Shown here: positions 3,940 through 55,933 of the stretch, piece after piece
How positions within the stretch are numbered: the first letter of the stretch is position 1
Layout of the letters: the number at the start of each line of letters is the position of its first letter
DNA from: a virus
Lineage: Duplodnaviria > Caudoviricetes
Length of the DNA: 64,000 nt
IMG/VR virus record: IMGVR_UViG_3300032216_000524
Span: 1 to 64,000 of that record
Reading direction: 5' to 3' (one strand)
The notes under the pieces: generated by a model
Databases searched by the model: none
Told to the model about the DNA's origin: nothing
The model's input: the letters and a program-made list of their open reading frames with translations, nothing else
Made by a program: the position numbers and the translations under genes

Positions 3940-4275
3940 TTATTTTCCAACAGAATACTTTACATCGTGTTCATATAAAAACATTAGGCAACACATTGCA
4001 TGTGCCAAGTGGTTCTTGCCAGTCTCGGGATCGTTTTGCTCTCCCTCTTTCCATGCCCAAAGATGTCTTTGCATTGCGTCAAAATATCTTCGTTTTGAGT
4101 CTGGAACATTCTTCCAATTATCTGGTTCGTATTTCTCTGCACCAAATGTTAGAATTTCTACAGTCGCTTTTAATGCGAGTGGTGGCACCAAACCATATTG
4201 AAGTTTGTTTCCATCAAATTTTCGCCCACCAGTCGTAGCTGTTTGGGACTTTTTAATTTGTTCTTTAGTTGCCAT
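3940..4275 (-). CDS. dATP/dGTP diphosphohydrolase-like protein (DUF5664-type)
   Basis: GRKFDGNK.QYGLVPP, LTFGAEKY..DNW, RYFDAMQRHL.AW..GE..DPETG..HLAHA.CCL.FL pattern. Confidence 0.8.
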   Translation of the reverse strand: MATKEQIKKSQTATTGGRKFDGNKLQYGLVPPLALKATVEILTFGAEKYEPDNWKNVPDSKRRYFDAMQRHLWAWKEGEQNDPETGKNHLAHAMCCLMFLYEHDVKYSVGK

Positions 4276-4338
4276 TAAATCTCCATAATGAAAAATGAGT
4301 CAAGATACTCCGAAGAATATCTTGACTCAATGGCACGA

Positions 4339-4605
4339 TTAACTACGCTGTGCAGTAAAAGCGTCAGCACCGAGAACAGCAGCAGCGATTGCAACAATAC
4401 GCTTGCTTGGCTGACCAATACGATACTTAGTAGTCTTGCTACCATCACTCAACTTAGCAGCATTGCTGTAAACGCAGTAACCTTGCTCACGCAGGTTACG
4501 GATTGTGCTGGCTGGGTGAGCAATACCAAAAGACGCTTTGATTTGCTTTGCAGTAAACTGCTTACCAGATTGCAACTGGTTCAACAACATTTCTTGCTTT
4601 GACAT
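4339..4605 (-). CDS. small winged-helix/HTH DNA-binding protein
   Basis: LLNQLQSGKQFTAKQIKASFGIAHPASTIRNLREQGYCVY followed by a beta-hairpin (KTTKYRIG); GGAG RBS. Confidence 0.7.
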   Translation of the reverse strand: MSKQEMLLNQLQSGKQFTAKQIKASFGIAHPASTIRNLREQGYCVYSNAAKLSDGSKTTKYRIGQPSKRIVAIAAAVLGADAFTAQRS

Positions 4606-5079: not shown

Positions 5080-6243
5080 TTAAATAACTTCAGTGGTTGT
5101 TACAACTTCTGGAGTAACATCGGGTTGAACTTCAACATCCAACTCTCCAGCGGATACCTTGTCAAACAAGTCAACAAAGGCAAGGCGAGTCGCATCATCA
5201 AATCGATTAGTACACAACTCGATTGCTTTCTTCTGATTCTTAAAGATCGAGAATGCTCGAACAATATGAACCAGACGACGAGTAGTGATTGTCTCATCGA
5301 CACCACCAGCGTCAAAGGTTCGGCGAATGGCTTCAGCCCACTTCACCAAATTACTTGCAAATTCCTCATCAAGACAATTATACGACTTCATAAGGTTGCA
5401 GACAATTTTATTTTCCACTTTTGCATCAGGGTATTCCTGATTGAAAGTTACTGCAAATCTTTCCAAGAATGCTTCGTTCAGGACATTGGTACCGATATAG
5501 CGACCATCGTCTGAACCCTTACCCTTAGTATTTGCAGTCGCAAACAGATTGAAACCTACAGCTGGGTATACCATTTCGTTCTTCAGTTTGAAGTAGAATG
5601 GCTTACCTTCGAGAATTGGTTGCAAACACAAGAGGGTGTTAGCACCACCAGCATCGATCTCGTCAAGCAGAAGGGGAATACCCAAACGCATTGCAATCAT
5701 TACTGGACCTTCAACGATCTCCACATTACCATCGACAAGAGTCTTAGAACCGATCAGCTGATCTTCGTCTGTCATCTTGTTCAGGTTTACACGGATTAAT
5801 GGTCGTTGCAGTTTGGCACAGATCTGTTCAATCGATGTGGACTTGCCATTCCCAGTTGGACCAGAGATGTAGGTCGGATAGAATTGCTTAGAAGAAACAA
5901 TTCGTTCTAAGTCTTTGTAGTTACCGAATGGTACATAGTTACCATCGAGTTTAGGAATGAGGGAATCCAAATTCGTATAATCCACAATCACACTTTCGGG
6001 TTGCTGTGGTGCAAGAGCAGTATTACCAGCCATCGGTGCAGTTACGCTACCTCCAGGAATTGCATACAGCCCACGACCAATTTTTGTTTTCATAAGCCAG
6101 AGGGGAAACTTCTCGGTCTTGAGTTTTGACATCACCTCAAGAATTTGAGTTCGGGATACTTGACCACTGGTCTTTGTATCGGGAAACATCTCAGTCAGTT
6201 TTGTTTCAAACTGATTAACAAACACATTATCTTTAGCCATCAT
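5080..6243 (-). CDS. MoxR-family AAA+ ATPase (phage CobS-like)
   Basis: Walker A GPTGNGKS, EDQLIG, Walker B LLLDEID, ATANTKGKGSDDGRY.GTNVLNEAFLERF and C-terminal ITTRRLVHI. Confidence 0.92.
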   Translation of the reverse strand: MMAKDNVFVNQFETKLTEMFPDTKTSGQVSRTQILEVMSKLKTEKFPLWLMKTKIGRGLYAIPGGSVTAPMAGNTALAPQQPESVIVDYTNLDSLIPKLDGNYVPFGNYKDLERIVSSKQFYPTYISGPTGNGKSTSIEQICAKLQRPLIRVNLNKMTDEDQLIGSKTLVDGNVEIVEGPVMIAMRLGIPLLLDEIDAGGANTLLCLQPILEGKPFYFKLKNEMVYPAVGFNLFATANTKGKGSDDGRYIGTNVLNEAFLERFAVTFNQEYPDAKVENKIVCNLMKSYNCLDEEFASNLVKWAEAIRRTFDAGGVDETITTRRLVHIVRAFSIFKNQKKAIELCTNRFDDATRLAFVDLFDKVSAGELDVEVQPDVTPEVVTTTEVI

Positions 6244-6267
6244 TCACTCCATTCATAATAAAAAATA

Positions 6268-6423
6268 TCAAACACCAAACGCCATGTCATGCTCAAACGC
6301 AGTAAGGCAACTTTCAACTTCTTCTCGGTTGAATAATCGTCCACCAATCACAACCAACTGATCCTGCAAACCATATTCGACTGCAAGGTTGATCAACTCA
6401 TTGTCTGTAAAAGAATCCCACAT
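6268..6423 (-). CDS. 51-aa hypothetical protein (MWDSFTDNELINLAVEYGLQDQLVVIGGRLFNREEVESCLTAFEHDMAFGV)
   Basis: Not in the ORF track; hand-translated; GAGG RBS; fills the gap between 6435..6716 and the ATPase. Confidence 0.65.
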   Translation of the reverse strand: MWDSFTDNELINLAVEYGLQDQLVVIGGRLFNREEVESCLTAFEHDMAFGV

Positions 6424-40988: not shown

Positions 40989-43900
40989 TTAGTATGTACC
41001 ACCATCAATATCGAAACCAGATAAAACACTAGTATCTGCGCCAGCACCAGTTAAATTCCCACCAACATAAATTTTCTTGGCAACAGACAAACCACCTGAC
41101 ATTACAACAGAGCCAGTTCCCAATGGACCAGCTTCAGTAGTGTCAGTGAATGTTACTAGGTTGTTAGCTGCAAGAGTTGTAAATGCACCAGCAGCACGAG
41201 TAGTAGAACCAATTGGTGTATTATCAACAGTACCACCAGAGATAGTTAGGTCATTCGCAACATAAGTATCTGCGATCGCAGTACCTTGCCAAATACCAGT
41301 AGTGATAGTGCCAAGAGTTGTGATAGTATTTTGACCAACATAAGTTGAAGCAATATCAACAGTATGAGTATTAACAGTAATGCGATCAGTAGTTCCACCA
41401 ACTGTTAATACACCATTAGCATATGTTAAACCATCACCAGCGAGAGATGATTTTAACTGTAACGCATCATCAGAAATCTCGATACCACCAGTTGTATTAT
41501 TAACATTAACTGCTAAAGTATAACCAGACTTAACTAAACCATCACCAGCAATTAGAGTACCAGAGGATGAGAACAATGTCCAGTCGATAGCAGTAACACC
41601 AACATCAACAACCTTAGTTGTTACAACGAAACCAGCATTTAAGTTTACAGAACCATCTTCAACGAAAGTAAATGCACCTGAAGTAACTTCAGTATTTTGA
41701 TCGAAGTCAGTTGCACGAGTCCATGCACCAGAATCATTAGCAATATAGATACCATTTTCAGAAGCAGTATCTTGATTTTTAACAAGGATACGATCGCCAG
41801 TAACAGTTGTCTTAGTGTCAATTGTTTTAACACCAGTCAATGCAATGTCAACAGTAGTTGCTAAACGAACTGATTGTTTAACATCAAGACCTGAACGAGC
41901 AGCATCAACATAGTATTTGGTAGCTGCGTCAGTATCATCAGTTGGTTCTGCAACATTTTTAATTTGAGCATTAGAAGCAGAAACATAACCAGCGCCAATT
42001 GGTTCTAAGATAACATTAGCATCAGTACCAGCATTGGTTGCTGTAATTACTGCACCATCAATCTCAATATTTGTAGCGTTATATGTAACTTCTTTAGTAT
42101 CAGAGTTGTAGATTACAAACTGTGAACCAGCATTTACATTTCTGATTGGATCAATGAATAAACCAGCTTCATCTGGATTAATACCAGTACCATCGCCAGT
42201 GGCAGTTGCTTGAATAACGATAGAGTTATTGTGTTGGCTATATTCAGCAGCATGAGAACCGATTGCGATAGCATTAGTACCTTGACTGGTAGTATCGAAT
42301 ACACCTTGACCAGCATGGTGACCGATGGCAACAGCATAATCACCTTGACCATAACGACCAGCTAAACGACCGATAGCAACTGCTTTCTGTCCTTGGTATT
42401 GATCACCAGCCCAGCGACCGATGGCGATAGCGGAGAAATTTTGATTAGTATTACCAGCATCTTCACCGATGGCGATAGCAGTTAATTGTTGATTTAAGTA
42501 ACCAGCATTATTACCGATAGCAACCGCATTTTGTTGTTGACTAGTATTACCAGCATTAACACCGATAGCAACTGCATTAGTACCTTGTGAAGTATTACCA
42601 GATCCAGCACCGATAGCAACTGCGCTACTTTGTTGATTTGATTCACCAGCCTGAGCACCAATAGCAACTGCGTAGCTACCTTGATTTAAATAACCTGCAC
42701 CACCAACTGAAGAGTTTGGTGAAGAACCGATAGCGATAGCATCAGAACCTTGACCAGAATTACCAGCACGATTACCCATGGCAATCGCATTGTTACCTTG
42801 GTTAGTTGTACCAGCACGAGCACCGATAGAAATAGTATCCCAAGATTGACCATCTTGAGTAGTTGGTTGATAACCGATAGAAATTCTTTGCGAATAACCA
42901 GTTGCATCAACACCATTACCTAACAGGATAGAGTTGCTAGAACCATCAGAAAGAATAGCACCATGTGGTAACTCTAATGTTCCACCATTGGTATTAGTAA
43001 ATGACCAACGAGCATTATTATTTGCAAAAAGAGTAATTGCATTGTTGAAGTTGTTAATATACAACTCACCATCGAATCCCATCTCGGCAACTTTATCGCC
43101 AGAGATATTGTTGGAGTCATACCATTGGAAACCAACATCAGGTAATGTCAACCAACCAGCACCAGTGAATACTGCGTTTTTCTCAGTGCCATTAGAAGCA
43201 GCAAGGATAACATCACCAGTAGCGTCATTGGTTTCAACAACACCTGGAATTACTAAGTGACCATCAGAGTTTCTGAAAGTAACTTCGCCAGAATCGTTCT
43301 TTAATACGATGTCATTGTTATCGGTGCGTAGATAAATCTTACCATTGTTCCTTGCATAAAGAGCAATATCATTTGCGCTATCGTAGTAACCAGCATCTGG
43401 TCCACCAATGTCGATATATGATTCACCATTGTCGTAGTTACCAAGAGTTAAACCACCATCAGATCCGTTCCAAATATTGAATCTGTCTGAATTATCCCAG
43501 TTACTAAAGTGTAATAATGCATTAAGATTTCCGCTTGGTTTTAAAACAAATGCATTATTATTTTCTGCCCAAAATTGAGCATCGCTTACACCAGAATCCG
43601 CAGTATTAATATCTGGGAAACCAATTTTACCGTCTAAAGCAAATTTCCAGTATTGAGCAACTGAACTACCAGTCCACTGGGCATTCTTAATCCACACACC
43701 ATCATATTGTGCATCAACTTGGCTGTAACGAGAAACATCGTAGTCATGCCATCTTAAAGATGAACGACCAGCATTTGCATCACCAGCACTATTTGAAGAC
43801 TGGATTAAGAATCCTTGACCTTGAGTTACTGGAGTTGCACGAATTGCATTATTTGGATAACCCCATGTGTCGAACTTGATAGCATCGGTGCCACCATTCC

Positions 43901-44891
43901 AAGCAAGTTGAGCAGCGACACCTTCATTAGAATTACCACCAGAACCAAACAATAAAGTATCAGCATTTAATGTGGCAGATGTTGTACCAGATAATTTGAG
44001 GATCTCTTCATTATTGGTATAAAGAGAAAGGATGCCATCAGAAACGCTGAACATACCAGTATCATAACCAGTATCATCAGCAAAACTATAACCAGTAGTA
44101 CCAGTGCCAGTAGGATTACCATTGGCAGCGAGATATGCGCTAGAACTAACTTCATCGATACCGTAAAGATTACCACCAACAAACAAGTTACCTTGGATAG
44201 ATGCACCACCAGCAACTTTCAACGCACCAGTTGTGCCATCAGAAGTAGTTGCAGTTGTGGTTTTGATATCAATTCCATCACCATTTACAGTAACAACATT
44301 AGTTGAGTCGGAATAGAATTTGATATCACCAGTATTTAATGCAGTTACATATGTGTTTTGGTCAATTGAACGAACACCACCGAGTGATGACCAGTTTGTT
44401 CCATCGTAACCTTCAAAAGAAGTATTAGTTGTATTGAAACGAATAGCACCAGAAACATTAGGTGCTTGCTGTAGTGAAGTTCCTTTTGGAATTACTAAAG
44501 CGTTTGTTCCAGAGATAGTAACATAACCATCACCATCAGGTGTTAGAACAATGTTACCATCAGTATTTGTTGAACTGATTGTGTTACCATTAAAGTCTAG
44601 ATTATCAACTTTAAGGTTATTGATTCTATTATCACTATCTGTAATAATAGCAGAATTTGCAGTTAGAGTACCAGGAGTATGATCTAATTTGTCAGTGAAA
44701 TATTTACCACCGATAACGATATGGTTTGCTGCATTACCTGCAGTCTCTACACCCATACCAATGTATAAACGATCGCCACTACCTGCAAACTCTCCAGTCG
44801 CTTCTTTATTTGAATACGCTAATTCGCCAGTACCCAGTGTCGCTGGATTACCAGAGTTATTACTGCGTTTAATTCGGATGATTGATGCCAT
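40989..44891 (-). CDS. tail fibre / adhesin, 1300 aa, with YadA-like head repeats
   Basis: N-terminal IRIKRS..GELAY anchor; about 13 16-residue A.AIG..AG repeats (about 42215-42900); IKNVAEPTDDTDAATKYYVD neck motif; ends GFDIDGGTY. Confidence 0.85.
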   Translation of the reverse strand: MASIIRIKRSNNSGNPATLGTGELAYSNKEATGEFAGSGDRLYIGMGVETAGNAANHIVIGGKYFTDKLDHTPGTLTANSAIITDSDNRINNLKVDNLDFNGNTISSTNTDGNIVLTPDGDGYVTISGTNALVIPKGTSLQQAPNVSGAIRFNTTNTSFEGYDGTNWSSLGGVRSIDQNTYVTALNTGDIKFYSDSTNVVTVNGDGIDIKTTTATTSDGTTGALKVAGGASIQGNLFVGGNLYGIDEVSSSAYLAANGNPTGTGTTGYSFADDTGYDTGMFSVSDGILSLYTNNEEILKLSGTTSATLNADTLLFGSGGNSNEGVAAQLAWNGGTDAIKFDTWGYPNNAIRATPVTQGQGFLIQSSNSAGDANAGRSSLRWHDYDVSRYSQVDAQYDGVWIKNAQWTGSSVAQYWKFALDGKIGFPDINTADSGVSDAQFWAENNNAFVLKPSGNLNALLHFSNWDNSDRFNIWNGSDGGLTLGNYDNGESYIDIGGPDAGYYDSANDIALYARNNGKIYLRTDNNDIVLKNDSGEVTFRNSDGHLVIPGVVETNDATGDVILAASNGTEKNAVFTGAGWLTLPDVGFQWYDSNNISGDKVAEMGFDGELYINNFNNAITLFANNNARWSFTNTNGGTLELPHGAILSDGSSNSILLGNGVDATGYSQRISIGYQPTTQDGQSWDTISIGARAGTTNQGNNAIAMGNRAGNSGQGSDAIAIGSSPNSSVGGAGYLNQGSYAVAIGAQAGESNQQSSAVAIGAGSGNTSQGTNAVAIGVNAGNTSQQQNAVAIGNNAGYLNQQLTAIAIGEDAGNTNQNFSAIAIGRWAGDQYQGQKAVAIGRLAGRYGQGDYAVAIGHHAGQGVFDTTSQGTNAIAIGSHAAEYSQHNNSIVIQATATGDGTGINPDEAGLFIDPIRNVNAGSQFVIYNSDTKEVTYNATNIEIDGAVITATNAGTDANVILEPIGAGYVSASNAQIKNVAEPTDDTDAATKYYVDAARSGLDVKQSVRLATTVDIALTGVKTIDTKTTVTGDRILVKNQDTASENGIYIANDSGAWTRATDFDQNTEVTSGAFTFVEDGSVNLNAGFVVTTKVVDVGVTAIDWTLFSSSGTLIAGDGLVKSGYTLAVNVNNTTGGIEISDDALQLKSSLAGDGLTYANGVLTVGGTTDRITVNTHTVDIASTYVGQNTITTLGTITTGIWQGTAIADTYVANDLTISGGTVDNTPIGSTTRAAGAFTTLAANNLVTFTDTTEAGPLGTGSVVMSGGLSVAKKIYVGGNLTGAGADTSVLSGFDIDGGTY

Positions 44892-45182: not shown

Positions 45183-45524
45183 TTAAGTCTTTGTGATTTC
45201 TGGCGTTAAAATAACAAGACCTTCCAATGCACGAATTTTTGCAAATTCTGGCGATGGAGAGGTCAACTCAATATCGTACAAGTATCTACCTGCCTGAATA
45301 TTAGTGGTGTCGCTAGGATCAAGTTTTAACAAAACTTGCCCAGCTGGTGCATCGTATATAGATGCTGTAAAATTTACTGCTGAAGAGGATTGATATGATT
45401 TGCGGAATTGGGATTTGACGGTGAAACCTTCCAAATCCATTGGTGTTCCATCCTGATTTGTGAGCGAAATGATGCTACTAAATGTAGTTCCTTGATCGAC
45501 CACTAAATTCGAAATTGTTGCCAT
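45183..45524 (-). CDS. small virion protein, BppU-like Ig fold
   Basis: NL.VDQGTTF, P.DL.GFT.KSQ.RK, G.V.L.L....T..I..GRY.YDIE, R.LEG....TPE.T pattern common in T4-like virion modules. Confidence 0.7.
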   Translation of the reverse strand: MATISNLVVDQGTTFSSIISLTNQDGTPMDLEGFTVKSQFRKSYQSSSAVNFTASIYDAPAGQVLLKLDPSDTTNIQAGRYLYDIELTSPSPEFAKIRALEGLVILTPEITKT

Positions 45525-45547: not shown

Positions 45548-45578
45548 TATTTATAATTCCGAAGACTGCGTGTTGCAA
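45548..45578 (-). promoter_or_regulatory. consensus late promoter TATAAATA, overlapped by a possible sigma70 promoter
   Basis: TATAAATA at 45548-45555; TTGCAA-17 bp-TATAAA uses the same -10 box. Confidence 0.65.
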
Positions 45579-45580
45579 GT

Positions 45581-47248
45581 TTATGTCACTACGACAACAT
45601 AAATTCCGTTCCACCACTCATTCGAATTTTCTTGAGAATTCAAAATTTTCTTACTATACAACACTGATTTACCTGATTCAGCTATACCAGCATCTGCACC
45701 ATCTACCACTCCATCCCAGTTGGCGTCATCAAACACCAAAACAGCTTCTTTCGCCAAAGATTTACTGTAGTATTTTACAGCTTCCTTTGTAGCTTCAAAG
45801 TCGTGTGGACCATCGTAGAAGAAGATATCAATATCAGACAGTTTACTCGTATCTACAGAAAACAGATCGCAGTCATAAACGAATATTTTACTGTCTTTTT
45901 TATATCTTTTTACATTAGAAACAAAGGTATCTTTTGCATTTTCTGGTACAGATATATCATCTCTGGCTGGTTGAATCTGCTCTTTCCAGTTATCAACACA
46001 GTACAATTCTTTAGCATTACCTTCTAAGAAAGCTGCAGCAGTCGAACCAATAAACGAACCAATCTCTAAAACTTTAGAGTCTTTAATGGTAAGATTTTTC
46101 AGTAGAGTCTGAACTCTTGGTGAAGTCAACCCCTCAATATCAATATCGGTAGTAGCAATCCCAGAATCAAGAACAGCTTTAACTACATGCTTAACTACAT
46201 CTGAGTTATGTATTGGAGATTTTTTATCATAAATCTTATCGCAGTACTGACATTCCCAGCAGTCAAACTTACAGTTCTTAATCTTTTGGCGCCAGATAGT
46301 AATCGGCTTTTCAACCAGATTGTTATCGTTAATGTAATCGTTGAACCCATCAAAAAGGATTGGTTCATTTGCAGCCCACTTTTCTATAATAGCAAAAGTT
46401 TCCCACAACCGAGTTGCAGACTCACGACCATGCATTTTAAATACATCAATACCAAGATCAAAAAACTCTTCCCAATCTTCTTTCCATGGAGGAAAATCTG
46501 CAGTCTTTAAACTAACCGCAGGATCTTCGTTATCCCACTTTGGGCAACTAACCCTACTAATTGGATCATTAAAGTACTGTGGTTGTTCACCATCTCGAGT
46601 ATTATTGTAGTGGAAGTGTTCAACCATCATCGGACACTTACCCAAACAACCTTCATTGGCTAGAAGACTATATGTCATTTCGATGCCAAGATTTTTCTTA
46701 ATCCAGTCTTTTGCTTCCTTTAATCGTAGTAGGGTATCCCTATCACGCATTAAATCTCTATCCAAATTAACATAACGGAATCCTGCTTTTGCAAGATTTA
46801 CAATTTCTGAAGCAGAAGAAACATCTCTTAGAATTGTATTCTTAATATACAGTTCTGGATACCTTGCTTGAATCTGCCCAGTGGCTACCCAATGTGTATG
46901 CGGTAGCGTCACACAACGAACTCCAGCATCATACAGTGGCTGAAAATTCTTAATAAACAAATCCAAATTCTGCTGAGTTGGTGCAACCTCTATATTATTA
47001 AAGGTAGCACTAACTGAAACTCCTGTCGCAGTCTGAATATACAAAGCAGCTTCGATCGCTTGCAATTTATCTTCTGCGATTGGAATAACATCACCCATAG
47101 CGTCTTGCCTAAATGGAGCAATCCGACTGGTAAAATAAATGTCGTAGATGTAATCTTTATACTTTTCTACGAACTGAACAAACTTTTGAAATTCCTCTGC
47201 GCTTAATTTTGGGTTAAGCGGAATGCTGAATATTTTTTGGTTTCTCAT
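45581..47248 (-). CDS. fusion of a U32-like (Fe-S) domain and a class I SAM methyltransferase (Methyltransf_24-like)
   Basis: N-half: NEGCLGKCP, VSCPKW, DVFKMHGR (cf. U32 KIEGR), CKFDCWECQYC. C-half: VLEIGSFIGS, CVDNW, IFFYDGPH, VLVFDDANW.GV. Confidence 0.75.
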   Translation of the reverse strand: MRNQKIFSIPLNPKLSAEEFQKFVQFVEKYKDYIYDIYFTSRIAPFRQDAMGDVIPIAEDKLQAIEAALYIQTATGVSVSATFNNIEVAPTQQNLDLFIKNFQPLYDAGVRCVTLPHTHWVATGQIQARYPELYIKNTILRDVSSASEIVNLAKAGFRYVNLDRDLMRDRDTLLRLKEAKDWIKKNLGIEMTYSLLANEGCLGKCPMMVEHFHYNNTRDGEQPQYFNDPISRVSCPKWDNEDPAVSLKTADFPPWKEDWEEFFDLGIDVFKMHGRESATRLWETFAIIEKWAANEPILFDGFNDYINDNNLVEKPITIWRQKIKNCKFDCWECQYCDKIYDKKSPIHNSDVVKHVVKAVLDSGIATTDIDIEGLTSPRVQTLLKNLTIKDSKVLEIGSFIGSTAAAFLEGNAKELYCVDNWKEQIQPARDDISVPENAKDTFVSNVKRYKKDSKIFVYDCDLFSVDTSKLSDIDIFFYDGPHDFEATKEAVKYYSKSLAKEAVLVFDDANWDGVVDGADAGIAESGKSVLYSKKILNSQENSNEWWNGIYVVVVT

Positions 47249-48251
47249 TATAAAATTTAATTACACTCTCGGTTGGTTGATTTTCTTTACTCGCACCAAT
47301 CGTACAACCCAAACAAATTCCATTACAACGAACTTTATAATGTAAACAGTTCAGGCACTCTGATGGAGTTCCATACTCGTTATATTTATCGACATATTGT
47401 CGATTCAATTCTGCTTTAATTTCTTCAACATTTTCATAGTCAAATAATTTCTTTAATTTAGTTTCTTCTTTAGTTGGATAACAACGAATCATTGTTCCGT
47501 CTGGAAACATGTCAGTTGGATACCATCCACAAGTACTAGATTCTGGTTTTACATTTGTAGTAAAACTTCTGGGACTATTCCAAAGACAAGGAGGAACCTG
47601 ACAATCAAAATACACAGTAAAATTATTCAACTCAGCTAGGTGAGTAATTTTATCAATTACCATACCTAACTTTTTATTGTTTATTACATAACTACCTGTA
47701 AGATCAATACCCAATCTAACGCAAGCAACTTTACCCTGTAGTTCTTTTACTAACCACAGCAAATAATTGTAAGTAGTTTCATAATCTTTAGATAGAGTAT
47801 AAGCCAAAAAGAATTTGGCATCTTTTCTTCTATCTATACCATACTTTTCTTTTACCAAGTCGTACAGAGTGTTGTAGTTTTTCTTAAACAACTTCATTCT
47901 GTTATGCTGGTCTAATTCCATCGCATTCGGAAGAAACCAGTTAAAGTGTTGTATATTGTCTACAATGTAATCAAGAGTTTCTTGCCCAAAAAGAAAGTTA
48001 CTAATAAGATCTACTTTAAGATCTCGTTTAATAACTTCATTAATGATACCTTGGAAATTACTATGCTGTGTTGGTTCTCCACCAAGAATTTTAACTTGGC
48101 CATCATACTTGTGGTGGTTTACATGGTCAAGAGCCTTGGAGAAGGTTTCAATGGACATTTCACCGAGAGCATCCTCTTTACGAGCAGACTCATCGGTGAA
48201 ACAGAAGGTACAATTCTTGGCACAACTGCCAGTAATCACATAGTTAATCAT
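47214..48251 (-). CDS. radical SAM enzyme with C-terminal SPASM/twitch domain
   Basis: CAKNCTFC (CxxxCxxC), LGGEPT, C-terminal CGWY..D.FPDG..IRCYP and CLNC.....CNGICLGC. Confidence 0.9.
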   Translation of the reverse strand: MINYVITGSCAKNCTFCFTDESARKEDALGEMSIETFSKALDHVNHHKYDGQVKILGGEPTQHSNFQGIINEVIKRDLKVDLISNFLFGQETLDYIVDNIQHFNWFLPNAMELDQHNRMKLFKKNYNTLYDLVKEKYGIDRRKDAKFFLAYTLSKDYETTYNYLLWLVKELQGKVACVRLGIDLTGSYVINNKKLGMVIDKITHLAELNNFTVYFDCQVPPCLWNSPRSFTTNVKPESSTCGWYPTDMFPDGTMIRCYPTKEETKLKKLFDYENVEEIKAELNRQYVDKYNEYGTPSECLNCLHYKVRCNGICLGCTIGASKENQPTESVIKFYNEKPKNIQHSA

Positions 48252-48266
48252 ATAGAAAAGATTTTA

Positions 48267-48989
48267 TTACAAATCTATTTTTGGTGGTGGTACATCAATA
48301 TCGTGAATATGCTTATAAGGATAAGCAGAGTAACCTAATCTGTTGTTTGCCAAAAGGTGTAACTCATAGAGCGATTCACACTCTTTGATTTCTTTCTGAA
48401 CAGTTTTTTGACGAACCAACAAATCAGCAATGGATGTTTCATATTCTTCGATTTTTGCAAGAACAATATCCGCCATCGCAGAAACAGTAATACCTCTAAC
48501 CTCAGCAAGCTGAGTCAAAATTGGAGCAGAAGCTGAAGAATCAGCTTTAACTGCTAATGCTTCTTGGCGTTGGGCTGGGAACAATTCTTTTTCAGCTTTT
48601 GGAACTCTGCTAGTAATTTGATCAAATTGATAATTGTAGTATGTTTTGATTTCTTTGTTCAATACTATTCTTAGCAAATCCATTGCAGCAGATTTATCAG
48701 ACTCAGTCAATGTATATGGAACTTTTTCAACATCAAGATCCATAGACTCTGCTGGAAACAATTCTTCAAATTGTCCAACACGCTTAACATTAATTGTATC
48801 TTTATAAGCCCAAGCAAATTTACAACCATCAGCCAACTCTTTTGTAATAACAGTTGCGTCTAATGTATCAAAATCTACATATGGTCTTGCTTCTTCAGCA
48901 ATGAATGAAACAGTGTATGATAAGCAGGTTCCTCTTCTTAGTTCCCCTAGTACTGGAACATTTGGAATTGGTTTATACAGGATATACAT
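48267..48989 (-). CDS. hypothetical protein with a tail-fibre-assembly/chaperone-like C-terminal segment
   Basis: EKELFPAQRQEA......A.APIL.QLAE.RGITV..MA..VLAK resembles motifs in fibre-assembly proteins; N-terminal part unrecognised. Confidence 0.6.
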   Translation of the reverse strand: MYILYKPIPNVPVLGELRRGTCLSYTVSFIAEEARPYVDFDTLDATVITKELADGCKFAWAYKDTINVKRVGQFEELFPAESMDLDVEKVPYTLTESDKSAAMDLLRIVLNKEIKTYYNYQFDQITSRVPKAEKELFPAQRQEALAVKADSSASAPILTQLAEVRGITVSAMADIVLAKIEEYETSIADLLVRQKTVQKEIKECESLYELHLLANNRLGYSAYPYKHIHDIDVPPPKIDL

Positions 48990-49748
48990 TTATAGAATCT
49001 CCAATGGCATTTCTAATTTTCTTGCATCTTGCAGGGTAGATGCATCTAACCCTAATTGTTTCTGAACTTCTTTTCGAATTACTTGCTGTTGATTTTCCAG
49101 TTTTAAAGAGAAGTCGTTTGCAATGGCAAACACATGCGACTGAGTATCAACATCAAGGTTGCAAATGGCTTCCATATTACCAGAACCAATACGACCCATG
49201 GACAACATATCCATAGACGCTTGTTTAGCCAAACGCAAAGTCCAATACTGTTTGTGGTACAATTCTTCTTCAGGAGTACCAAACACAGCAGTCAGTGGGC
49301 GACCATCTTGAGTTTTACCTTCAGGACTTTCCAACAAAGTTTCAACCATTTTTAGCAGATAATCTCGCTCTTTGTAAGCATCTTTCAACATAACTTCTGT
49401 CTTCAAAAGATCTATTTGTTTCTTTTGAATCTCATGTTCAATCAGTGCTTTTTGCGCTGGAGAAAATGTTTGTTCCAAATTCTCTTGCTCAATTGCAATT
49501 TCTAATTCAACTTTTTTCTTACTGTATAAAGTAAAAGAAATAACTTCCTCTCTTGAGGATATCTCCAATAACCATTGGCGCAATTTGCCAAATGGTGTAA
49601 TTTCTTGATTGCCAACAAAATGTTCCAATTTAAAGAAAGGTGTTTCCCAGTTTTTGTTCAAGGAAAATGCAACCAAATCTTGTGAGGAAGCAGGTAAATA
49701 ACTCACATCAGTTAGTGTAGGTCTTTTCAGTTCAACGAGTGCGTTCAT
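48990..49748 (-). CDS. hypothetical coiled-coil-rich protein, 252 aa
   Basis: GGAG RBS; first gene after the late motif at 49787; helical, no recognised family. Confidence 0.75.
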   Translation of the reverse strand: MNALVELKRPTLTDVSYLPASSQDLVAFSLNKNWETPFFKLEHFVGNQEITPFGKLRQWLLEISSREEVISFTLYSKKKVELEIAIEQENLEQTFSPAQKALIEHEIQKKQIDLLKTEVMLKDAYKERDYLLKMVETLLESPEGKTQDGRPLTAVFGTPEEELYHKQYWTLRLAKQASMDMLSMGRIGSGNMEAICNLDVDTQSHVFAIANDFSLKLENQQQVIRKEVQKQLGLDASTLQDARKLEMPLEIL

Positions 49749-49786
49749 TGTTTCTCCATAGTTTTAATAAAAGATAATAACATATC

Positions 49787-49793
49787 TATTTAG
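49787..49793 (-). promoter_or_regulatory. late promoter motif CTAAATA heading the rSAM/U32-MTase block
   Basis: Overlaps the TAA stop of 49790..51832, about 40 bp upstream of the next start. Confidence 0.5.
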
Positions 49794-51832
49794 TCTCTCC
49801 ATCCAGTGGTTCCAGAGGAAGCGCCAGAAACTCCTTTTCTTTGAGTTCCTGTATTTGCTACACTAGAAATATCTACAGCATAAATCAATCTCATAGAATC
49901 GACAAGCTGCCCACCACCAGTGGAATTATACATTCCAACATACCATCCACGATCTTGACCCATTATATAGTTTTGCTCTGCGCTATTAACTGGTTTACTA
50001 ATAGTATATTGAGCATCAGTAGACCAAATAGTTTTTGTCCAACCAGTGCTTCCTGGTGTTCCACTTGCAGTACCACCATACATTCTATCCAGTTTACTAG
50101 ATAAAACTTTATCTTGTGGAGATCCACACATTGGTGATGAAGCAGTCCAAGAAGCCACAGTATCTGTAGAGTATACAAATTTTTGGGTTATAACTGTAAC
50201 ACCATCCCATGCAGAAGAACTTGCACCAGACATTGCTGCATATAATTCAGTTGATCCAGTAATAGCGTTAGAGTACTGAGATGTATTTGCTAAAGTAGCT
50301 GATATGTTTGCCCATGTATCTGTTGCAATTGGCATTTTTTGAATTTTATCAGCATTGGTCCCAGTAGTTCCACCACCACAATAAATTGAAGTTTGATTTC
50401 CATCATTACCAGCCCAAACTGCCATAGCACCACCAGAATATGCATGGTCATTAGAGTTTGATGCAGTTTCTGTTCTCATGTTTAACTTTTGAGTTTTAGT
50501 ACCGACGATATTCGCCCCACCACCACTAGTACAACCAGTAGTATACTGATGATCTGGTCCACAAGCACCACTATGGTAGTTATGTGAAGATGGTAGTACA
50601 TCTCCAAGATCAACAGTAATTTCGCTGGCCATTATTAATCTATTAACATTCTTCCAAGGAGTGCCAGATTTATAACCACCAATACTGTAACCAGTAGTCA
50701 AAATCTGACGATAGAAATAAGGAGTTGTAACAGTTAAACTATATTGATTCTCAGAAGAAGAATTACCTAAACTATCTTTAGCAGTAATACCAAAGTTAAA
50801 AGTCTGCGAAGCTGCTTGCCTTGCACCAATATTAAATGATCCAGAAAGAACACCAGAAGATGAATTTAATGTAACACCTTTTGGTAGTGAACCAGAGGTA
50901 ACAACATAACTTAAAGTTACACTGGATGGATTGCTTGCAGAAATCGTAGCAATGTTTGTATAATTTGAGTTAGTGTTTAATGTAGTAGAGCCAGTTGTAA
51001 TTGGAACAATATAATCTAGTGTACCCAACGAACCAGCACTAGGTGATGTAATTGCTGGAGAAGTTGCGTTAGTAACAGTCAGCGTAAAATCTTTAGAAGC
51101 AGTTCTGCTAGAGTTATCTGTTGCTTTGATTGTTAGATTATATACTGCAGTGCTGGTGCCAGTCAGTGTTATTGATCCAGTAATAGCGCCAGTTGAAGAG
51201 TTAATTGATAAACCAGAAGGTAAACCATATCCAGAACCACCACCACCAGAAACAGCGTTTGAACTATATGTTATAGTACCACCTGGAGAAGCTGCAGCAA
51301 CAGAGGTTGAAATAGTTCCTTCAGTTACTGTACCAAGACTCGTGGCTGTAGAAAATACTGGACCACCAACCACTTGAATTGGATATGCAAAAGTAGAAGA
51401 TTGACCATATTCGTTTGTAACAACAATGTTTGAATATGTACCAGTAGTTAAGTTACCAGTGCCAGTTGTAACTGTAAGAACCTCAGGACTAGTAAAAGTA
51501 ACAGTTGCGCTACCGATAGAAGTGCTATCGAATTTTACAGTAGAACCTGTTGTAAAATTAAATCCATTGATCTGAAAAACTGCACTGGAAGATGGATTGA
51601 TTTGTTTGGTTGAACTGGTTTGATCAATGAACCCAGAAACTGGAGTTACACCAGTAACAGTATGATTGATCGGAGAAAGAATATGCCAACCACCAGTAGC
51701 ATAACCTTCATATAAACCACTACCTGTGTTATATCGAATTTGGGCTGCAGTAGGAGATCCAGGTCTAGTTCCACTGTATGGTAACTTGATAAACCCAGTA
51801 TCGTTAATAGTTGTATTTTTTAAAGTTGCCAT
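49790..51832 (-). CDS. adhesin-like virion protein, paralog 3 of 3
   Basis: MATLKNT.I.DTG anchor, IPT/TIG-like and Ig/cadherin-like domains (LP.GL.INSSTG.I.G), YRQILTTGY junction, divergent repeat-rich C-terminus. Confidence 0.8.
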   Translation of the reverse strand: MATLKNTTINDTGFIKLPYSGTRPGSPTAAQIRYNTGSGLYEGYATGGWHILSPINHTVTGVTPVSGFIDQTSSTKQINPSSSAVFQINGFNFTTGSTVKFDSTSIGSATVTFTSPEVLTVTTGTGNLTTGTYSNIVVTNEYGQSSTFAYPIQVVGGPVFSTATSLGTVTEGTISTSVAAASPGGTITYSSNAVSGGGGSGYGLPSGLSINSSTGAITGSITLTGTSTAVYNLTIKATDNSSRTASKDFTLTVTNATSPAITSPSAGSLGTLDYIVPITTGSTTLNTNSNYTNIATISASNPSSVTLSYVVTSGSLPKGVTLNSSSGVLSGSFNIGARQAASQTFNFGITAKDSLGNSSSENQYSLTVTTPYFYRQILTTGYSIGGYKSGTPWKNVNRLIMASEITVDLGDVLPSSHNYHSGACGPDHQYTTGCTSGGGANIVGTKTQKLNMRTETASNSNDHAYSGGAMAVWAGNDGNQTSIYCGGGTTGTNADKIQKMPIATDTWANISATLANTSQYSNAITGSTELYAAMSGASSSAWDGVTVITQKFVYSTDTVASWTASSPMCGSPQDKVLSSKLDRMYGGTASGTPGSTGWTKTIWSTDAQYTISKPVNSAEQNYIMGQDRGWYVGMYNSTGGGQLVDSMRLIYAVDISSVANTGTQRKGVSGASSGTTGWRD

Positions 51833-51836
51833 TTAA

Positions 51837-53858
51837 TTAATCTCTCCAGCCTGTAGTAGCTGATGATGCTCCAGAAGTACCTTTATGGCTCATTCCAGTA
51901 TTTGCTGATGATCCAGTATCTGTTGGGAAATCGAATCTGGTTGAGTTGTTGTTTTGTGCGCCATCGTGAGTACCAATCATCCAACCTCTATATTGACCAT
52001 TAAGATAATTTTCTTCACCACAGATAGCTCCATATCCTTTAGGCATAGTCCACTGAGCAGCAGTAGCCCAGTTAGTTTTTCTAAAAGTATCACCACCAGT
52101 TTGTTCTTGAGAACCATAAGTGCCAGCATTACCACCATATATATTTCCTAACTTAGATGCTAGGAATTTTTGTTGGTCAGAGGAAGAAATAGTTGCACCA
52201 TATGATCCTATTGTATCAGTAGCATAATATAATCTAGTCGTTTGAGCAGTAAGACCAGGACGAGCAGTACTACCTTGTAGGATACCGCTAGTCTCATCAG
52301 AGCCAGCTATAGCACTATAAAAATTACCAGAAGTAACAGTTGCGCTGAGAATAGATTGTACATCAGTAGCATAAGTATATTTTTCAATATTCCCGCTGTT
52401 GGTTCCAGAAAACCCACCAAGAACATATGCAGCTAATTGCCATCCATCATTACCTGATAATACTGCTGCTTGTCCTCTGCTTCCCTGCGATGTTGCAGTA
52501 CCCATAGTATTTACTTCAGTTCTCATATTAAAGATTTGAGTTAATGTACCATAAGAGTCATGGGCTTGGTTTGAGTTACAGCCAAATGTATATAATTTAT
52601 CCTGAGAGCAAGTTCCACCATGATAGTTTACAGCGTAAGTTAATCTATCTCCAAGATCAACAGTCAACTCCATAGTCATGTTTAATCTATTTGCATTTTT
52701 CCATGGTGAACCAGATTTATATCCACCGACTACATATCCAGTAGTTAAAATTTGACGATACAAATAAGGTGTAGCAAGAGTTAGAGAATATTGATTTTCA
52801 GTTGAAGCGTTGTTATTTACATCAACAGCAGTTACACCGAAGTTAAACACCTGTGATGCAGGTTGTTTATTACCGATAGAAAAAGAACCTTTTAATACAC
52901 CACTACTGGAATCTAGTGTAATTCCAGTTGGTAAAGATCCAGAAGTTATTCTATAATAAACAGTAGCACTGGCTGGGTCTGTCGCAGTAAAAGTTGCAAT
53001 AGTTGTAGAAGAAGTACCAGTACCAGAAACTGGAGTTTGATATGTAAACGAACCGACTGATCCAGCTGAAGGAGCTGTGATTGTTGGGTTGCCAGAGTCA
53101 GTTACTATTAATGTAAAATCTTTAGAAGCAGTTCTGCTAGAATTATCTGTTGCTTTGATAGTAAGATTATATGTAGTTGTACCATTAACAATCAAAGAAC
53201 CTGTAATTGATCCAGAAGAACTAATTGATAATCCAGTTGGAATTCCGTAACCAGAGCCACCATTACCTGATACAGCATTAGAAGAATATGTTACTGTTCC
53301 ACCAGGAGAAGTTGCTGCGACTGAAGTGGAAATAGTACCTTCGGTAAATGTTCCGATATTTGTTGCTGTTGAGAATTGTGGACCGCCAACAACAGTAACT
53401 GGATAAGAGAATGATGCAGACTGACCCGATTGTCCATTCTTAACTACAACATTAGAATACGACCCAGCAGTCGGTGCAAAAGAAGTTCCAGTTGTTACGG
53501 TAATTTGTTTTGGACTATTTACAACAACTCCGCTTGTAATTTGAGTTGAGTCTAAAAATACTGTAGCATCAGTGGTAAAGTTAAAACCAGTGATAGTAAA
53601 TACACCAGAGATTCCTGGATTGATTTGTAAACCAGTACCAGTAATATATGTTAAACCAGAAACAAGAGTTACACCAGTAACAGTATGATTGAATGGAGAA
53701 AGAGTGTGCCATCCGCTGGCTGCATAACCTTCGAATACATTTTTCTCGTTATTATATCGTAGTTCGCTAACCTCACCAGCAACTCGTTGAGATGTGTTAC
53801 CAACAGCTACCTTAAGATAACCTGTATCATTAATTACCGTATTTTTTAAAGTTGCCAT
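51837..53858 (-). CDS. adhesin-like virion protein, paralog 2 of 3
   Basis: Same architecture as the two neighbours. Confidence 0.8.
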   Translation of the reverse strand: MATLKNTVINDTGYLKVAVGNTSQRVAGEVSELRYNNEKNVFEGYAASGWHTLSPFNHTVTGVTLVSGLTYITGTGLQINPGISGVFTITGFNFTTDATVFLDSTQITSGVVVNSPKQITVTTGTSFAPTAGSYSNVVVKNGQSGQSASFSYPVTVVGGPQFSTATNIGTFTEGTISTSVAATSPGGTVTYSSNAVSGNGGSGYGIPTGLSISSSGSITGSLIVNGTTTYNLTIKATDNSSRTASKDFTLIVTDSGNPTITAPSAGSVGSFTYQTPVSGTGTSSTTIATFTATDPASATVYYRITSGSLPTGITLDSSSGVLKGSFSIGNKQPASQVFNFGVTAVDVNNNASTENQYSLTLATPYLYRQILTTGYVVGGYKSGSPWKNANRLNMTMELTVDLGDRLTYAVNYHGGTCSQDKLYTFGCNSNQAHDSYGTLTQIFNMRTEVNTMGTATSQGSRGQAAVLSGNDGWQLAAYVLGGFSGTNSGNIEKYTYATDVQSILSATVTSGNFYSAIAGSDETSGILQGSTARPGLTAQTTRLYYATDTIGSYGATISSSDQQKFLASKLGNIYGGNAGTYGSQEQTGGDTFRKTNWATAAQWTMPKGYGAICGEENYLNGQYRGWMIGTHDGAQNNNSTRFDFPTDTGSSANTGMSHKGTSGASSATTGWRD

Positions 53859-53860
53859 TT

Positions 53861-55933
53861 TTAGTCTCTTTGTCCACCAGTACCAGAAGAAGAACCAGAA
53901 GTTCCCTTTCTGAATGTTGCGTCTGCCGACATACTGCCGTAGTCAATTGCGAATATAATTCGATAAGATCTATTGTTTTGAGCACCATCGTAAATACCAA
54001 TCGCCCAACCACGATCCTGACCCGTTACAAAAATTTCCTCACCAGATGCGCCAGTACCAGTAGCATTTGTGGCACCAGTATAACCTCTGGAGATAGTAAA
54101 TTGTTCTTGTGTAGCAAATATGGTTTTTGTCATGTTACCATTATCTGATACAGTTTGATCGCCATCTCCGTAACCAGTTCCAGTCCCAGCATAAACAAAC
54201 CCATATTTTGTACTCAGCGATTTCATTTGGGTACTAGTATTTAGAGCAACTCCATAAGTTGAAACTGCATCAGTAGAAAATGTCATTTTCTTTGTGGCAG
54301 CAGTTGCTGAAACATCACCAAGATTCCACAATCCGTATAATTCATCAGATGCAGTAATTGCTTCGCCAGCAGAACTAATACCAAGAATATTACCTAAGTT
54401 AGACATAGTTTCAGTAGAATATGTATACTTCTCAACTGAATCTCCGTTAGCTCCAGTAAATCCAGAAGCAAGATATCCTGCTAATTGATATCCGTCATTA
54501 CCACCAGTAGCGCCAGATCTTGATCTTGTATAAACAGTAGTTCCGTTCGTAGTACCTAACTCAGTTCTCATATTGAATACCTGAATTACATTGCCTGGGG
54601 TAGCACTCCCACTTGATTGTGAATTATATACATAATGTCTATCTTTGCTGGAAGAACCAGTTTTATAGTTATGAGCGTAAGTTAATTTATCCCCAAGGTC
54701 AACAGTAACTTCAGTCATCATTGCTAATCTATTAACATTCCTCCACGGAGAACTATTTTTATATCCACCAGTAACATAACCAGTAGTTAAAATCTGACGA
54801 TATGGATACGCTGTATTAACAATTAAGCTGTATTGATTCTCCAAAGACGCATTGTTGTTTGCATCAACAGCAGTTACACCAAAGTTATAAGTTCTTGATG
54901 CTGGTTGCATATTTCCATAAACAACAGTACCAGCCAAAACACCAGTAGTTGAATTTAATCTAATGCCATCAGGTAAAGACCCAGAAGACAATCTGTAGTA
55001 AACAGTTGCGCTAGCAGGATCAGTAGCAGTAAAAGTTGTAATTGTTTGCGATGAGGCAAATGCGTTTGCAGCAGTATTTGATGAAGCAGTTGAAGAATAA
55101 GCAGGATCATATCCACTCAAAAGAGTTCCTAACGAACCAGCTGCTGGAGAGGTAATTACTGGAATACCAGAGTCACTAACAGTCAGCGTAAAATCTTTAG
55201 AAGCAGTTCTTGATGAGTTATCTGTTGCTTTAATTGTTAGATTGTAAGTAGTTGTACCATTAACAACTAACGAACCTGTAATTGCACCAGTTGATGAATT
55301 GATCGACAATCCAGTAGGTAAACCATATCCAGAACCACCATTACCTGATACAGCGTTTGAACTATATGTTATAGTACCACCTGGAGATGTTGCAGCAACA
55401 GAAACTGAAATAGTTCCCTCAGTTACTGTACCCAAGTTAGTAGCAGTACTAAATTGTGGTCCACCAGCAACGATTACTGGATATGCATAGGTAACAGATT
55501 GTCCATAACCATTAGTTACTACAATGTTTGAGTATGTACCAGCAGATGGTCCAAAGGAAGTTCCAGTTGTAACTGTTATAGTGGTTGGATTTGTAATAGC
55601 AACACCACTAGAAATAGCAGTGGAATCTAACTTTACAGTTGTTGCTGAATCAAAGTTAAATCCGTTAATTGTGAATACACCAGAGATTCCTGAATTGATT
55701 TGTAAGCCAGTACCAACAAGATATGTAACACCTGAACCTGGAGTTACGCTGGTTACTGATAAGTTCATTGGTGACAATACATGCCAACCAGTTGAAGCAT
55801 AACCCTCAAAAATATTTAATTGAGAATTGTATCGTGTTTCTCCAACACCACCTGCAACTCGTTGTGAACTATCACCAGAAGGTAATTGTAGATACCCTGT
55901 GTCATCAATTTTTGTATTCTTTAAAATAGCCAT
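53861..55933 (-). CDS. adhesin-like virion protein, paralog 1 of 3
   Basis: Same architecture; MAILKNTKIDDTGYLQLPSG N-terminus. Confidence 0.8.
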   Translation of the reverse strand: MAILKNTKIDDTGYLQLPSGDSSQRVAGGVGETRYNSQLNIFEGYASTGWHVLSPMNLSVTSVTPGSGVTYLVGTGLQINSGISGVFTINGFNFDSATTVKLDSTAISSGVAITNPTTITVTTGTSFGPSAGTYSNIVVTNGYGQSVTYAYPVIVAGGPQFSTATNLGTVTEGTISVSVAATSPGGTITYSSNAVSGNGGSGYGLPTGLSINSSTGAITGSLVVNGTTTYNLTIKATDNSSRTASKDFTLTVSDSGIPVITSPAAGSLGTLLSGYDPAYSSTASSNTAANAFASSQTITTFTATDPASATVYYRLSSGSLPDGIRLNSTTGVLAGTVVYGNMQPASRTYNFGVTAVDANNNASLENQYSLIVNTAYPYRQILTTGYVTGGYKNSSPWRNVNRLAMMTEVTVDLGDKLTYAHNYKTGSSSKDRHYVYNSQSSGSATPGNVIQVFNMRTELGTTNGTTVYTRSRSGATGGNDGYQLAGYLASGFTGANGDSVEKYTYSTETMSNLGNILGISSAGEAITASDELYGLWNLGDVSATAATKKMTFSTDAVSTYGVALNTSTQMKSLSTKYGFVYAGTGTGYGDGDQTVSDNGNMTKTIFATQEQFTISRGYTGATNATGTGASGEEIFVTGQDRGWAIGIYDGAQNNRSYRIIFAIDYGSMSADATFRKGTSGSSSGTGGQRD

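Follow-up and report, generated by a model that had tools for sequence, protein, structure and literature searches.

A U32-like/methyltransferase cassette in the fibre module of T4-like phages, with a lineage-specific radical SAM enzyme and the tails of fibre-tip proteins as a possible target

What does a T4-like phage do with a block of enzyme genes set among its tail-fibre genes? The question is raised by a 64,000-nucleotide stretch of viral DNA (IMG/VR record IMGVR_UViG_3300032216_000524, positions 1 to 64,000; hereafter the window), part of a T4-like, cyanomyovirus-like contig of 76 kb. All large genes of the window lie on the minus strand, including the four that form the block: p252 (48990-49748; phrog_1409), p240 (48267-48989; phrog_1604), a 345-aa radical S-adenosylmethionine (SAM) enzyme with a SPASM-type Cys-rich tail (47214-48251), and a 555-aa fusion protein of two domains (45581-47248), of which the N-terminal 345 aa form a U32-like domain (N340; 46214-47248) and the remainder a class I methyltransferase (45581-46213). 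An original prediction, made from the sequence alone, described these genes as a late-expressed candidate system for modifying virion proteins, most simply the three adjacent fibre-like paralogs. As an observation it is confirmed as a whole: the four open reading frames (ORFs) are borne out by the ORF list, packing is tight (0 and 15 nt between genes, and 35 nt shared by the radical SAM and 555-aa ORFs), and PHROGs matches place structural or fibre-like genes on both flanks. Its interpretation holds for the domain calls, the position in the fibre region, late timing and the link to the paralogs, but not for a fixed block, a canonical U32 motif or occurrence with fibre genes only.

The genomic setting is that of a T4-type virion. 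Major head protein, scaffold, portal, tube, sheath, terminase and neck proteins are matched in PHROGs at 17-30 kb, and giant fibre-like and baseplate-like proteins fill 30-64 kb, so that the enzyme block sits inside the structural module, among tail-fibre genes. Near-identical DNA is absent from 50,697 cultured phage records, in which the closest protein relatives belong to marine cyanomyoviruses (~45% identity).

The block divides into a conserved core and a lineage-specific accessory. Two sets of viral loci were read: 80 radical-SAM loci, kept of 140 viral contigs found by an alignment-based scan (scanning viral contigs with the radical SAM protein alone found none), and 80 fused-type loci, kept of 297 found by a scan with the fused U32-like/methyltransferase protein; the closest relatives (70-82% identical) fall outside the set of loci read. 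The order paralogs-p252-p240-radical SAM-N340 is kept in 80/80 radical-SAM loci, with paralogs detected in 79, p252 in 79, p240 in 75, the radical SAM gene in 80 and N340 in 78; N340 and the methyltransferase are separate adjacent ORFs in this clade. Fused-type loci have the order paralogs-p252-p240-N340-methyltransferase wherever the upstream flank is available, and the radical SAM gene in 0/80. Among the 50,697 cultured phage records, N340-methyltransferase and p252 are found in 126 each and share the same taxon tallies; 121 records have the paralog head and 115 have p240, a few unrelated prophages being among these 115. The cultured carriers are ~120 cyanophages, including P-SSM4, Syn33, S-ShM2, P-HM2 and S-RIM2. 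No radical SAM homologue was detected in the same records (tblastn), and the radical SAM family comprises 91 protein clusters versus >2000 for N340. From the synteny counts, the co-occurrence in cultured phages and the cluster numbers, the core is therefore one to three tip paralogs plus p252, p240 and the U32-like/methyltransferase protein, with p252 and N340 as the tightest pair, and the radical SAM gene is an accessory of the cassette in one lineage, not part of its core. The proposed linkage to the adjacent paralogs is thus upheld for the core genes, whose co-occurrence with paralogs in phage genomes is near perfect (nearly the same ~120 cultured records, and the 160 viral loci examined). 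The proposed fixed four-gene system is not: the radical SAM gene is missing from all cultured records and from 80/160 viral loci. An independent lineage, Ralstonia jumbo phage RP12 (L083), has three consecutive genes, for a p252-like protein, N340 and a DUF401 permease.

Are these genes expressed with the virion proteins that surround them? Late timing had been read from two promoter words. The T4 late-promoter word TATAAATA, on the minus strand at 45548-45555 between the 555-aa gene and the next gene, has 3 copies in the window versus 5.6 expected by chance. The second word, CTAAATA (49787-49793, minus strand), overlaps a paralog stop codon 38 nt ahead of the p252 start and is a possible late-promoter variant; its 15 copies in the window equal the 15 expected, with 13/15 on the coding strand and several, like that at 49787, in short gaps directly upstream of late genes such as sheath and tube. 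CTAAATA may therefore, from its placement, be the late-promoter form of this phage, and as a late signal the two words argue weakly, the first not being enriched and the second showing the strand bias and the late-gene gaps. Stronger backing comes from published transcription data for Prochlorococcus phage P-HM2: in infections in the light as well as in the dark, PHM2_098-101, the homologues in that phage, all fall in the Late class (PMC5082946, supplement file 3).

The accessory enzyme of the window is solidly assigned to the radical SAM superfamily: PF04055 matches at 42.8 bits against a cut-off of 29.5 (profile search), the cluster motif C10-x3-C14-x2-C17 is conserved in at least 90% of 30 homologues, and GGEP at residues 57-60 is invariant in all 30. 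Nine further Cys are invariant or nearly so in these homologues, and the Cys tail (C241-x10-G-x4-C257 ... C299-x2-C302-x6-C309-x3-C313-x2-C316) is near the SPASM seven-Cys pattern (CX9-15GX4C ... CX2CX5CX3C ... C), one spacing being 6, not 5. SPASM membership is a candidate call made on this Cys motif; Pfam SPASM (PF13186) gives no match at E 0.01, and hhalign aligns the enzyme over its full length, at 95% probability, to a bacterial enzyme that itself matches PF13186. Matches to named families span only the generic N-terminal core (first ~90 residues) and fall far below cut-offs, and viperin, MoaA, NrdG, QueE and similar identities were rejected on this basis. The enzyme has no N-terminal recognition domain (RRE/PqqD-like), because its cluster motif begins at residue 10. 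No short precursor-peptide ORF lies between the genes in the window or in the 80 radical-SAM loci, and a PDB sequence search with the enzyme returned nothing specific.

The core enzyme poses the harder assignment. PF01136 (Peptidase_U32) has no match on the 555-aa protein, nor in six frames of the whole contig, and a PDB sequence search with this protein gave nothing specific; among 64 N340 homologues, two match PF01136 (1.4e-9). The Foldseek search with a two-domain model was dominated by the methyltransferase domain, and N340 was folded alone with the 64 homologues. The resulting 345-aa model (predicted local distance difference test score, 93.3) has the U32 structure 5D88 as its top PDB match in Foldseek (E 1.7e-7; template modelling (TM) score 0.72 by target), and 5D88 is again top in VIA-align against representatives (Z 16.8, root-mean-square deviation 3.1 over 227 residues; next TIM barrel, 13.0). 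Look-alikes in the ESM Atlas are U32-named. Seven Cys are invariant in the 64 homologues, arranged as C201-x3-C205-x29-C235 and C326-x3-C330-x2-C333-x2-C336, whereas the U32 oxidases UbiU/V, TrhP and RlhA bind a 4Fe-4S cluster with four Cys in the pattern CX6CX15CX3C (PMC11574389). N340 lacks this pattern and was rejected as a canonical U32 oxidase. Ring hydroxylation by those oxidases is O2-independent and depends on prephenate. The term U32-like is therefore apt for the fold and for the two homologues with PF01136, but not by the Pfam threshold or the Cys motif of U32 oxidases. Because the fold match is to U32 yet the Cys pattern differs, N340 is a divergent U32-fold branch, found mostly in viruses, whose metal-site pattern is its own. 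We note that the C-terminal CX3CX2CX2C of N340 (residues 326-336; 46214-46270), which follows the TIM barrel, includes the radical-SAM-type spacing CX3CX2C, and that a radical SAM protein is also among the structure matches in the ESM Atlas (TM 0.76); a second cluster or a SAM-cleaving site are candidates for this motif.

The fused domain is a class I methyltransferase, as first proposed: Methyltransf_24 matches residues 394-508 of the 555-aa protein at 39.8 bits (threshold, 26.3). The single PDB sequence match of its profile is YrrM/TrmR (5ZW3/5ZW4), at E 2e-4 and weak (24 bits over 87 residues); homologues carry the Joint Genome Institute (JGI) label 'O-methyltransferase YrrM', and Foldseek matches are class I methyltransferases spread over RNA, protein and small-molecule types. 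Kinship with YrrM/TrmR adds to the earlier idea of hydroxylation followed by O-methylation, a chemistry that would follow by analogy. To our knowledge, the only characterised pairing of a U32 protein with an O-methyltransferase is yrrMNO of Bacillus subtilis, which makes mo5U34. That precedent, together with the YrrM match and the JGI labels, raises the alternative that the cassette modifies nucleic-acid bases as TrhP and TrmR do, turning pyrimidines of tRNA, rRNA or phage DNA into 5-hydroxy and from there into 5-methoxy forms, with the radical SAM enzyme adding a further nucleoside modification. Late expression is compatible with modification of DNA, and Mom of phage Mu is a late function. 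The known U32 enzymes that act on RNA likewise have U or C as their targets (PMC11574389). This alternative is nevertheless unlikely: N340 lacks the Cys motif of those enzymes and falls below the Pfam U32 threshold, the YrrM match is weak while structural matches spread over substrate types, the 64-kb window has no tRNA genes, and the module, with p252 and p240, is always set among fibre genes and not in modules for replication or nucleotide metabolism.

The two helper proteins have no relatives in Pfam, NCBIfam or the PDB, and an ESM Atlas search with p252 returned only sub-threshold helical look-alikes. In each of the phage lineages examined, p252 is found with the U32-like protein. An unrelated Helicobacter canis prophage has the C-terminal domain of p240 in its own fibre region; this fits a fibre-associated role and does not demonstrate the chaperone role proposed for p240. 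In that prophage (L096, BK070053.1) a 219-aa protein resembling the C-terminal half of p240 is encoded at 5701-6360 between two large proteins, and a retron-type reverse transcriptase lies a few genes downstream; the arrangement may represent a diversity-generating element with a fibre as its target.

If the radical SAM gene is an accessory, what else occupies its place? A flavin Trp halogenase of ~503 aa (PF04820, E 5e-98) follows N340-methyltransferase in 46/80 fused-type loci (for example, L102 12265-13776), and one locus has another, shorter halogenase-like gene in the slot ahead of it (L100 8815-10011). Several 2-oxoglutarate (2OG)-Fe(II) oxygenases are found in and around the slot, often flanking halogenases; S-ShM2 has three between its p252-like gene and the fusion, and one subgroup of the radical-SAM clade has one in front of the radical SAM gene. 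Halogenase, oxygenase and permease genes were not found on the 76 kb of the window phage, whose sole accessory is the radical SAM gene.

The adjacent paralogs offer a candidate target for these enzymes. Paralog 1 (690 aa; 53861-55933), paralog 2 (673 aa; 51837-53858) and paralog 3 (680 aa; 49790-51832), all on the minus strand, each consist of a He_PIG immunoglobulin-like stalk and a phrog_1417 head, and end in ...SSGTGGQRD, ...SSATTGWRD and ...SSGTTGWRD, respectively; PDB sequence searches with the heads gave nothing specific. The general tail pattern is PKGxxGxSS[GA]xxx[W]R[D]-COOH, and tails of the radical-SAM clade read ...SSGHCGWR plus 0 or 1 residue. At least one paralog has Trp among its last four residues in 73/73 radical-SAM loci with a readable paralog, in 33/39 halogenase loci (the remaining 6 having Phe or His) and in 2/24 loci with neither enzyme. 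By 70%-identity clusters, Trp is present in the 5 that are enzyme-positive and absent from the 4 that are enzyme-negative. The N340 tree shows just 2-3 changes of accessory-enzyme state and so provides 1-2 independent contrasts. Two narrower ideas were rejected: the tail motif as a marker of the radical SAM gene, since loci that lack the enzyme often have the motif too and only Trp co-varies, and a W-x-x three-residue cyclophane as the general radical SAM target, since 32 tails in relatives end directly at ...CGWR. A separate hint toward a tail target comes from RP12 (L083), in which two paralogous ~110-aa ORFs (2103-2438 and 4142-4465) end in GGFHWR-COOH; their distance to the p252-like/N340/DUF401 genes, which follow downstream, is 4-7 kb, each of the two comes after a ~560-aa protein, the first is unannotated in the record, and neither these ORFs nor RP12 ORF147 are related to the paralog heads. 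The flavin brominase SrpI is known to modify C-terminal Trp of peptides and proteins (PMC10286304, PMC10858898).

The same observations bear on whether the radical SAM gene belongs with its neighbours at all, or is unrelated cargo in a permissive slot, with its own target and no functional tie to them. Its absence from all cultured phages and from half of the 160 related loci, the narrow spread of its family (91 clusters against >2000) and the unrelated oxygenases or halogenase-like genes that fill the slot in other lineages are what cargo would look like. Set against these are its translational coupling to the next gene through the 35-nt overlap, its identical position in two clades whose radical SAM proteins share only ~45% identity, the different radical SAM/SPASM enzyme that adjoins N340 homologues in bacteria, and the Trp tail in every one of the 73 readable radical-SAM loci. 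Cargo is thus very unlikely.

The bacterial homologues show the enzymes in another setting. Three Campylobacterales contigs from metagenome-assembled genomes encode N340 homologues at ~40% identity. In L087 (8-3013) two N340 copies flank a 383-aa radical SAM/SPASM enzyme, with nusA and a miaB-like gene adjoining; in L090 (59-5679) N340 lies beside a 383-aa radical SAM/SPASM enzyme with a TPR protein, a 300-aa Cys-motif partner and a DUF6445 protein; and in L088 (4586-6544) the 300-aa partner is fused to N340, no radical SAM enzyme being seen on the contig. Fibre genes, p252 and p240 are absent from all three contigs, the 300-aa partner shows no relationship to either p252 or p240, and DUF6445 has no BLAST similarity to the 2OG oxygenase of the viral locus L005. 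N340-type genes are rare in this order (2/201 Campylobacterales genomes searched), and their pairing with radical SAM/SPASM enzymes is an uncharacterised bacterial system. The enzyme pair, at least, therefore occurs independently of fibre genes, an outcome that the original prediction had named as one that would refute it.

Transport genes point in a further direction. After N340 and the methyltransferase, radical-SAM-clade loci encode a ~285-aa ORF with a weak outer-membrane-barrel match (Phenol_MetA_deg) and then a DUF401/CitMHS-like permease (L034 10736-12594 and equivalents), and in some fused-type lineages a DUF401 permease directly follows the fusion; the permease of RP12 is at L083 10016-11056. 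Such genes would be expected if the cassette made or altered, in the infected cell, a small metabolite derived from an aromatic amino acid (a hydroxylated, methoxylated, halogenated or cross-linked indole-type compound) that the permease and outer-membrane protein move, the linkage to fibres being mere co-inheritance in a hypervariable region. The Trp halogenases and 2OG oxygenase arrays that adjoin the module accord with a metabolite, as do the bacterial pairs that lack fibre genes; cyanophage dioxygenase-halogenase arrays and bacterial halogenase and TonB-receptor neighbourhoods have likewise been read as secondary-metabolite or siderophore-like synthesis (Iyer et al. 2010, PMC2938197). A metabolite is still somewhat unlikely as the product, given that no scaffold-building enzyme (nonribosomal peptide synthetase, polyketide synthase or ligase) lies in the window or the loci read, that the window phage makes do without permease, halogenase and oxygenase, that paralog head, p252 and p240 co-occur almost perfectly, and that expression is late, together with structural genes.

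We therefore favour, tentatively and at somewhat less than an even chance, a late tailoring cassette of the fibre (host-recognition) module in marine T4-like phages, in which the U32-like/YrrM-like core would hydroxylate and O-methylate a ring and the accessory enzyme would act on the Trp tail of the paralogs. By analogy with TrhP and TrmR, the core enzyme would most likely carry out O2-independent hydroxylation of an aromatic or heteroaromatic ring, followed by O-methylation, with p252 and p240 as two non-enzymatic partners in the core. The accessory slot would be filled lineage by lineage, by radical SAM/SPASM in the window and by a flavin Trp halogenase or 2OG-Fe(II) oxygenases in relatives. 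The target would most likely be the conserved C-terminal tail of the adjacent paralogs, and the radical SAM enzyme would work on or beside the tail Trp by cross-linking or oxidation. A broader version, possible though doubtful, holds that in marine T4-like phages the exposed C-terminal tails of receptor-binding tip proteins are tailored by a U32-type hydroxylase/O-methyltransferase core with swappable Trp-directed enzymes (a radical SAM cross-linker, a halogenase and dioxygenases), such that host-recognition chemistry diversifies by exchange of enzymes, not by fibre sequence.

Several points weigh against a tip-protein target. No evidence was found for a virion protein as the substrate, and there is no direct evidence of virion-protein modification or of the paralogs in the virion. 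The characterised U32 enzymes all act on RNA bases or quinones, not proteins (PMC11574389), and N340 is without the Cys motif that they share. The association of tail and enzyme is not statistically established and is a lead, not a result; with only 1-2 independent contrasts on the N340 tree it has no valid significance, and it is broken by the 6 of 39 halogenase loci with Phe or His and by the 2 loci that have Trp but neither enzyme. P-SSM4, Syn33, P-HM2 and the L128 and L149 types have quite different tails and retain N340-methyltransferase, so a WR tail cannot be a requirement of the core enzyme. The radical SAM enzyme has neither a recognition domain nor a short precursor gene, and bacterial N340 and radical SAM/SPASM pairs exist without fibre genes, p252 or p240. 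The DUF401 permease in many relatives and the outer-membrane-barrel-like protein in some, judged by gene neighbourhood, suggest a small molecule.

Two neighbours of the block lie downstream of it. A 113-aa protein (45183-45524, minus strand) matches phrog_1084 and phrog_3304, 'L-shaped tail fiber protein assembly', and is given as context, with no claim that it belongs to the cassette. A 1300-aa protein (40989-44891) combines an N-terminal phrog_15769 part with a region matching head-decoration or fibre families (phrog_2647, phrog_11518), and a homologue comes after the cassette in the locus L151.

The core is abundant, with p252 and the U32-like/methyltransferase protein amounting to >2000 protein clusters in aquatic metagenomes and occurring in ~120 cultured cyanophage genomes, and its genes have been labelled 'hypothetical T4-GC 351-354' since 2005-2010. 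A fibre-tip target, if true, would mean that a receptor-binding protein of the virion is tailored by enzymes after translation; it would also bring proteins into U32 chemistry, as the first protein substrate of a U32-fold enzyme, and would give viral halogenases a natural function. A metabolite or nucleic-acid target, if true, would instead amount to a new auxiliary pathway of ocean phages.

Among known systems, the closest in gene content is the cyanophage set T4-GC 351-354 (P-SSM4 032-035, P-HM2 098-101 and Syn33 042-045), which is the same cassette, upstream of gp13 and late-expressed, with a 'sericin-like' paralog, p240-like and p252-like genes and the U32-like/methyltransferase fusion at ~45% identity. 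These genes, all annotated hypothetical, differ from the window in having no radical SAM gene, a swapped order of p240 and p252, and other paralog tails. In chemistry the nearest relatives are TrhP1/TrhP2 (YrrN/YrrO) with TrmR (YrrM) of Bacillus subtilis, and TrhP and RlhA of E. coli; the likeness is a U32-fold Fe-S protein coupled to a YrrM-type O-methyltransferase, and because of this coupling ring hydroxylation followed by O-methylation would be implied. N340 differs in scoring below the Pfam U32 threshold, in having CX3C...C and the C-terminal CX3CX2CX2C in place of CX6CX15CX3C, in being fused to its methyltransferase and always accompanied by p252 in phage fibre modules, and in giving no indication of an RNA substrate. 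UbiU/UbiV, the O2-independent ubiquinone hydroxylases with their accessory UbiT, share the U32 fold, a putative Fe-S site implied by conserved Cys and the theme of a non-enzymatic partner, whereas the phages have no second U32 paralog (the bacterial contig L087 has two), p252 is unrelated to UbiT, and there is no quinone context. Trp halogenase and 2OG oxygenases beside the core in relatives recall SrpI and the neighbourhoods of Iyer et al. 2010, but the window has neither enzyme and the core of U32-like/methyltransferase, p252 and p240 is not described there. SPASM maturases (anSME, the Lys-Trp cross-linkers StrB/SuiB, DarE and three-residue cyclophane synthases) differ from the radical SAM enzyme in that its sequence matches are confined to the generic N-terminal core, with no Pfam SPASM match and no short precursor peptide. 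They share with it a radical SAM core and a Cys-rich C-terminal auxiliary-cluster region, anSME also resembles it in size and in having no N-terminal recognition domain, and the tail Trp of the paralogs would fit the Trp-directed chemistry of this family.

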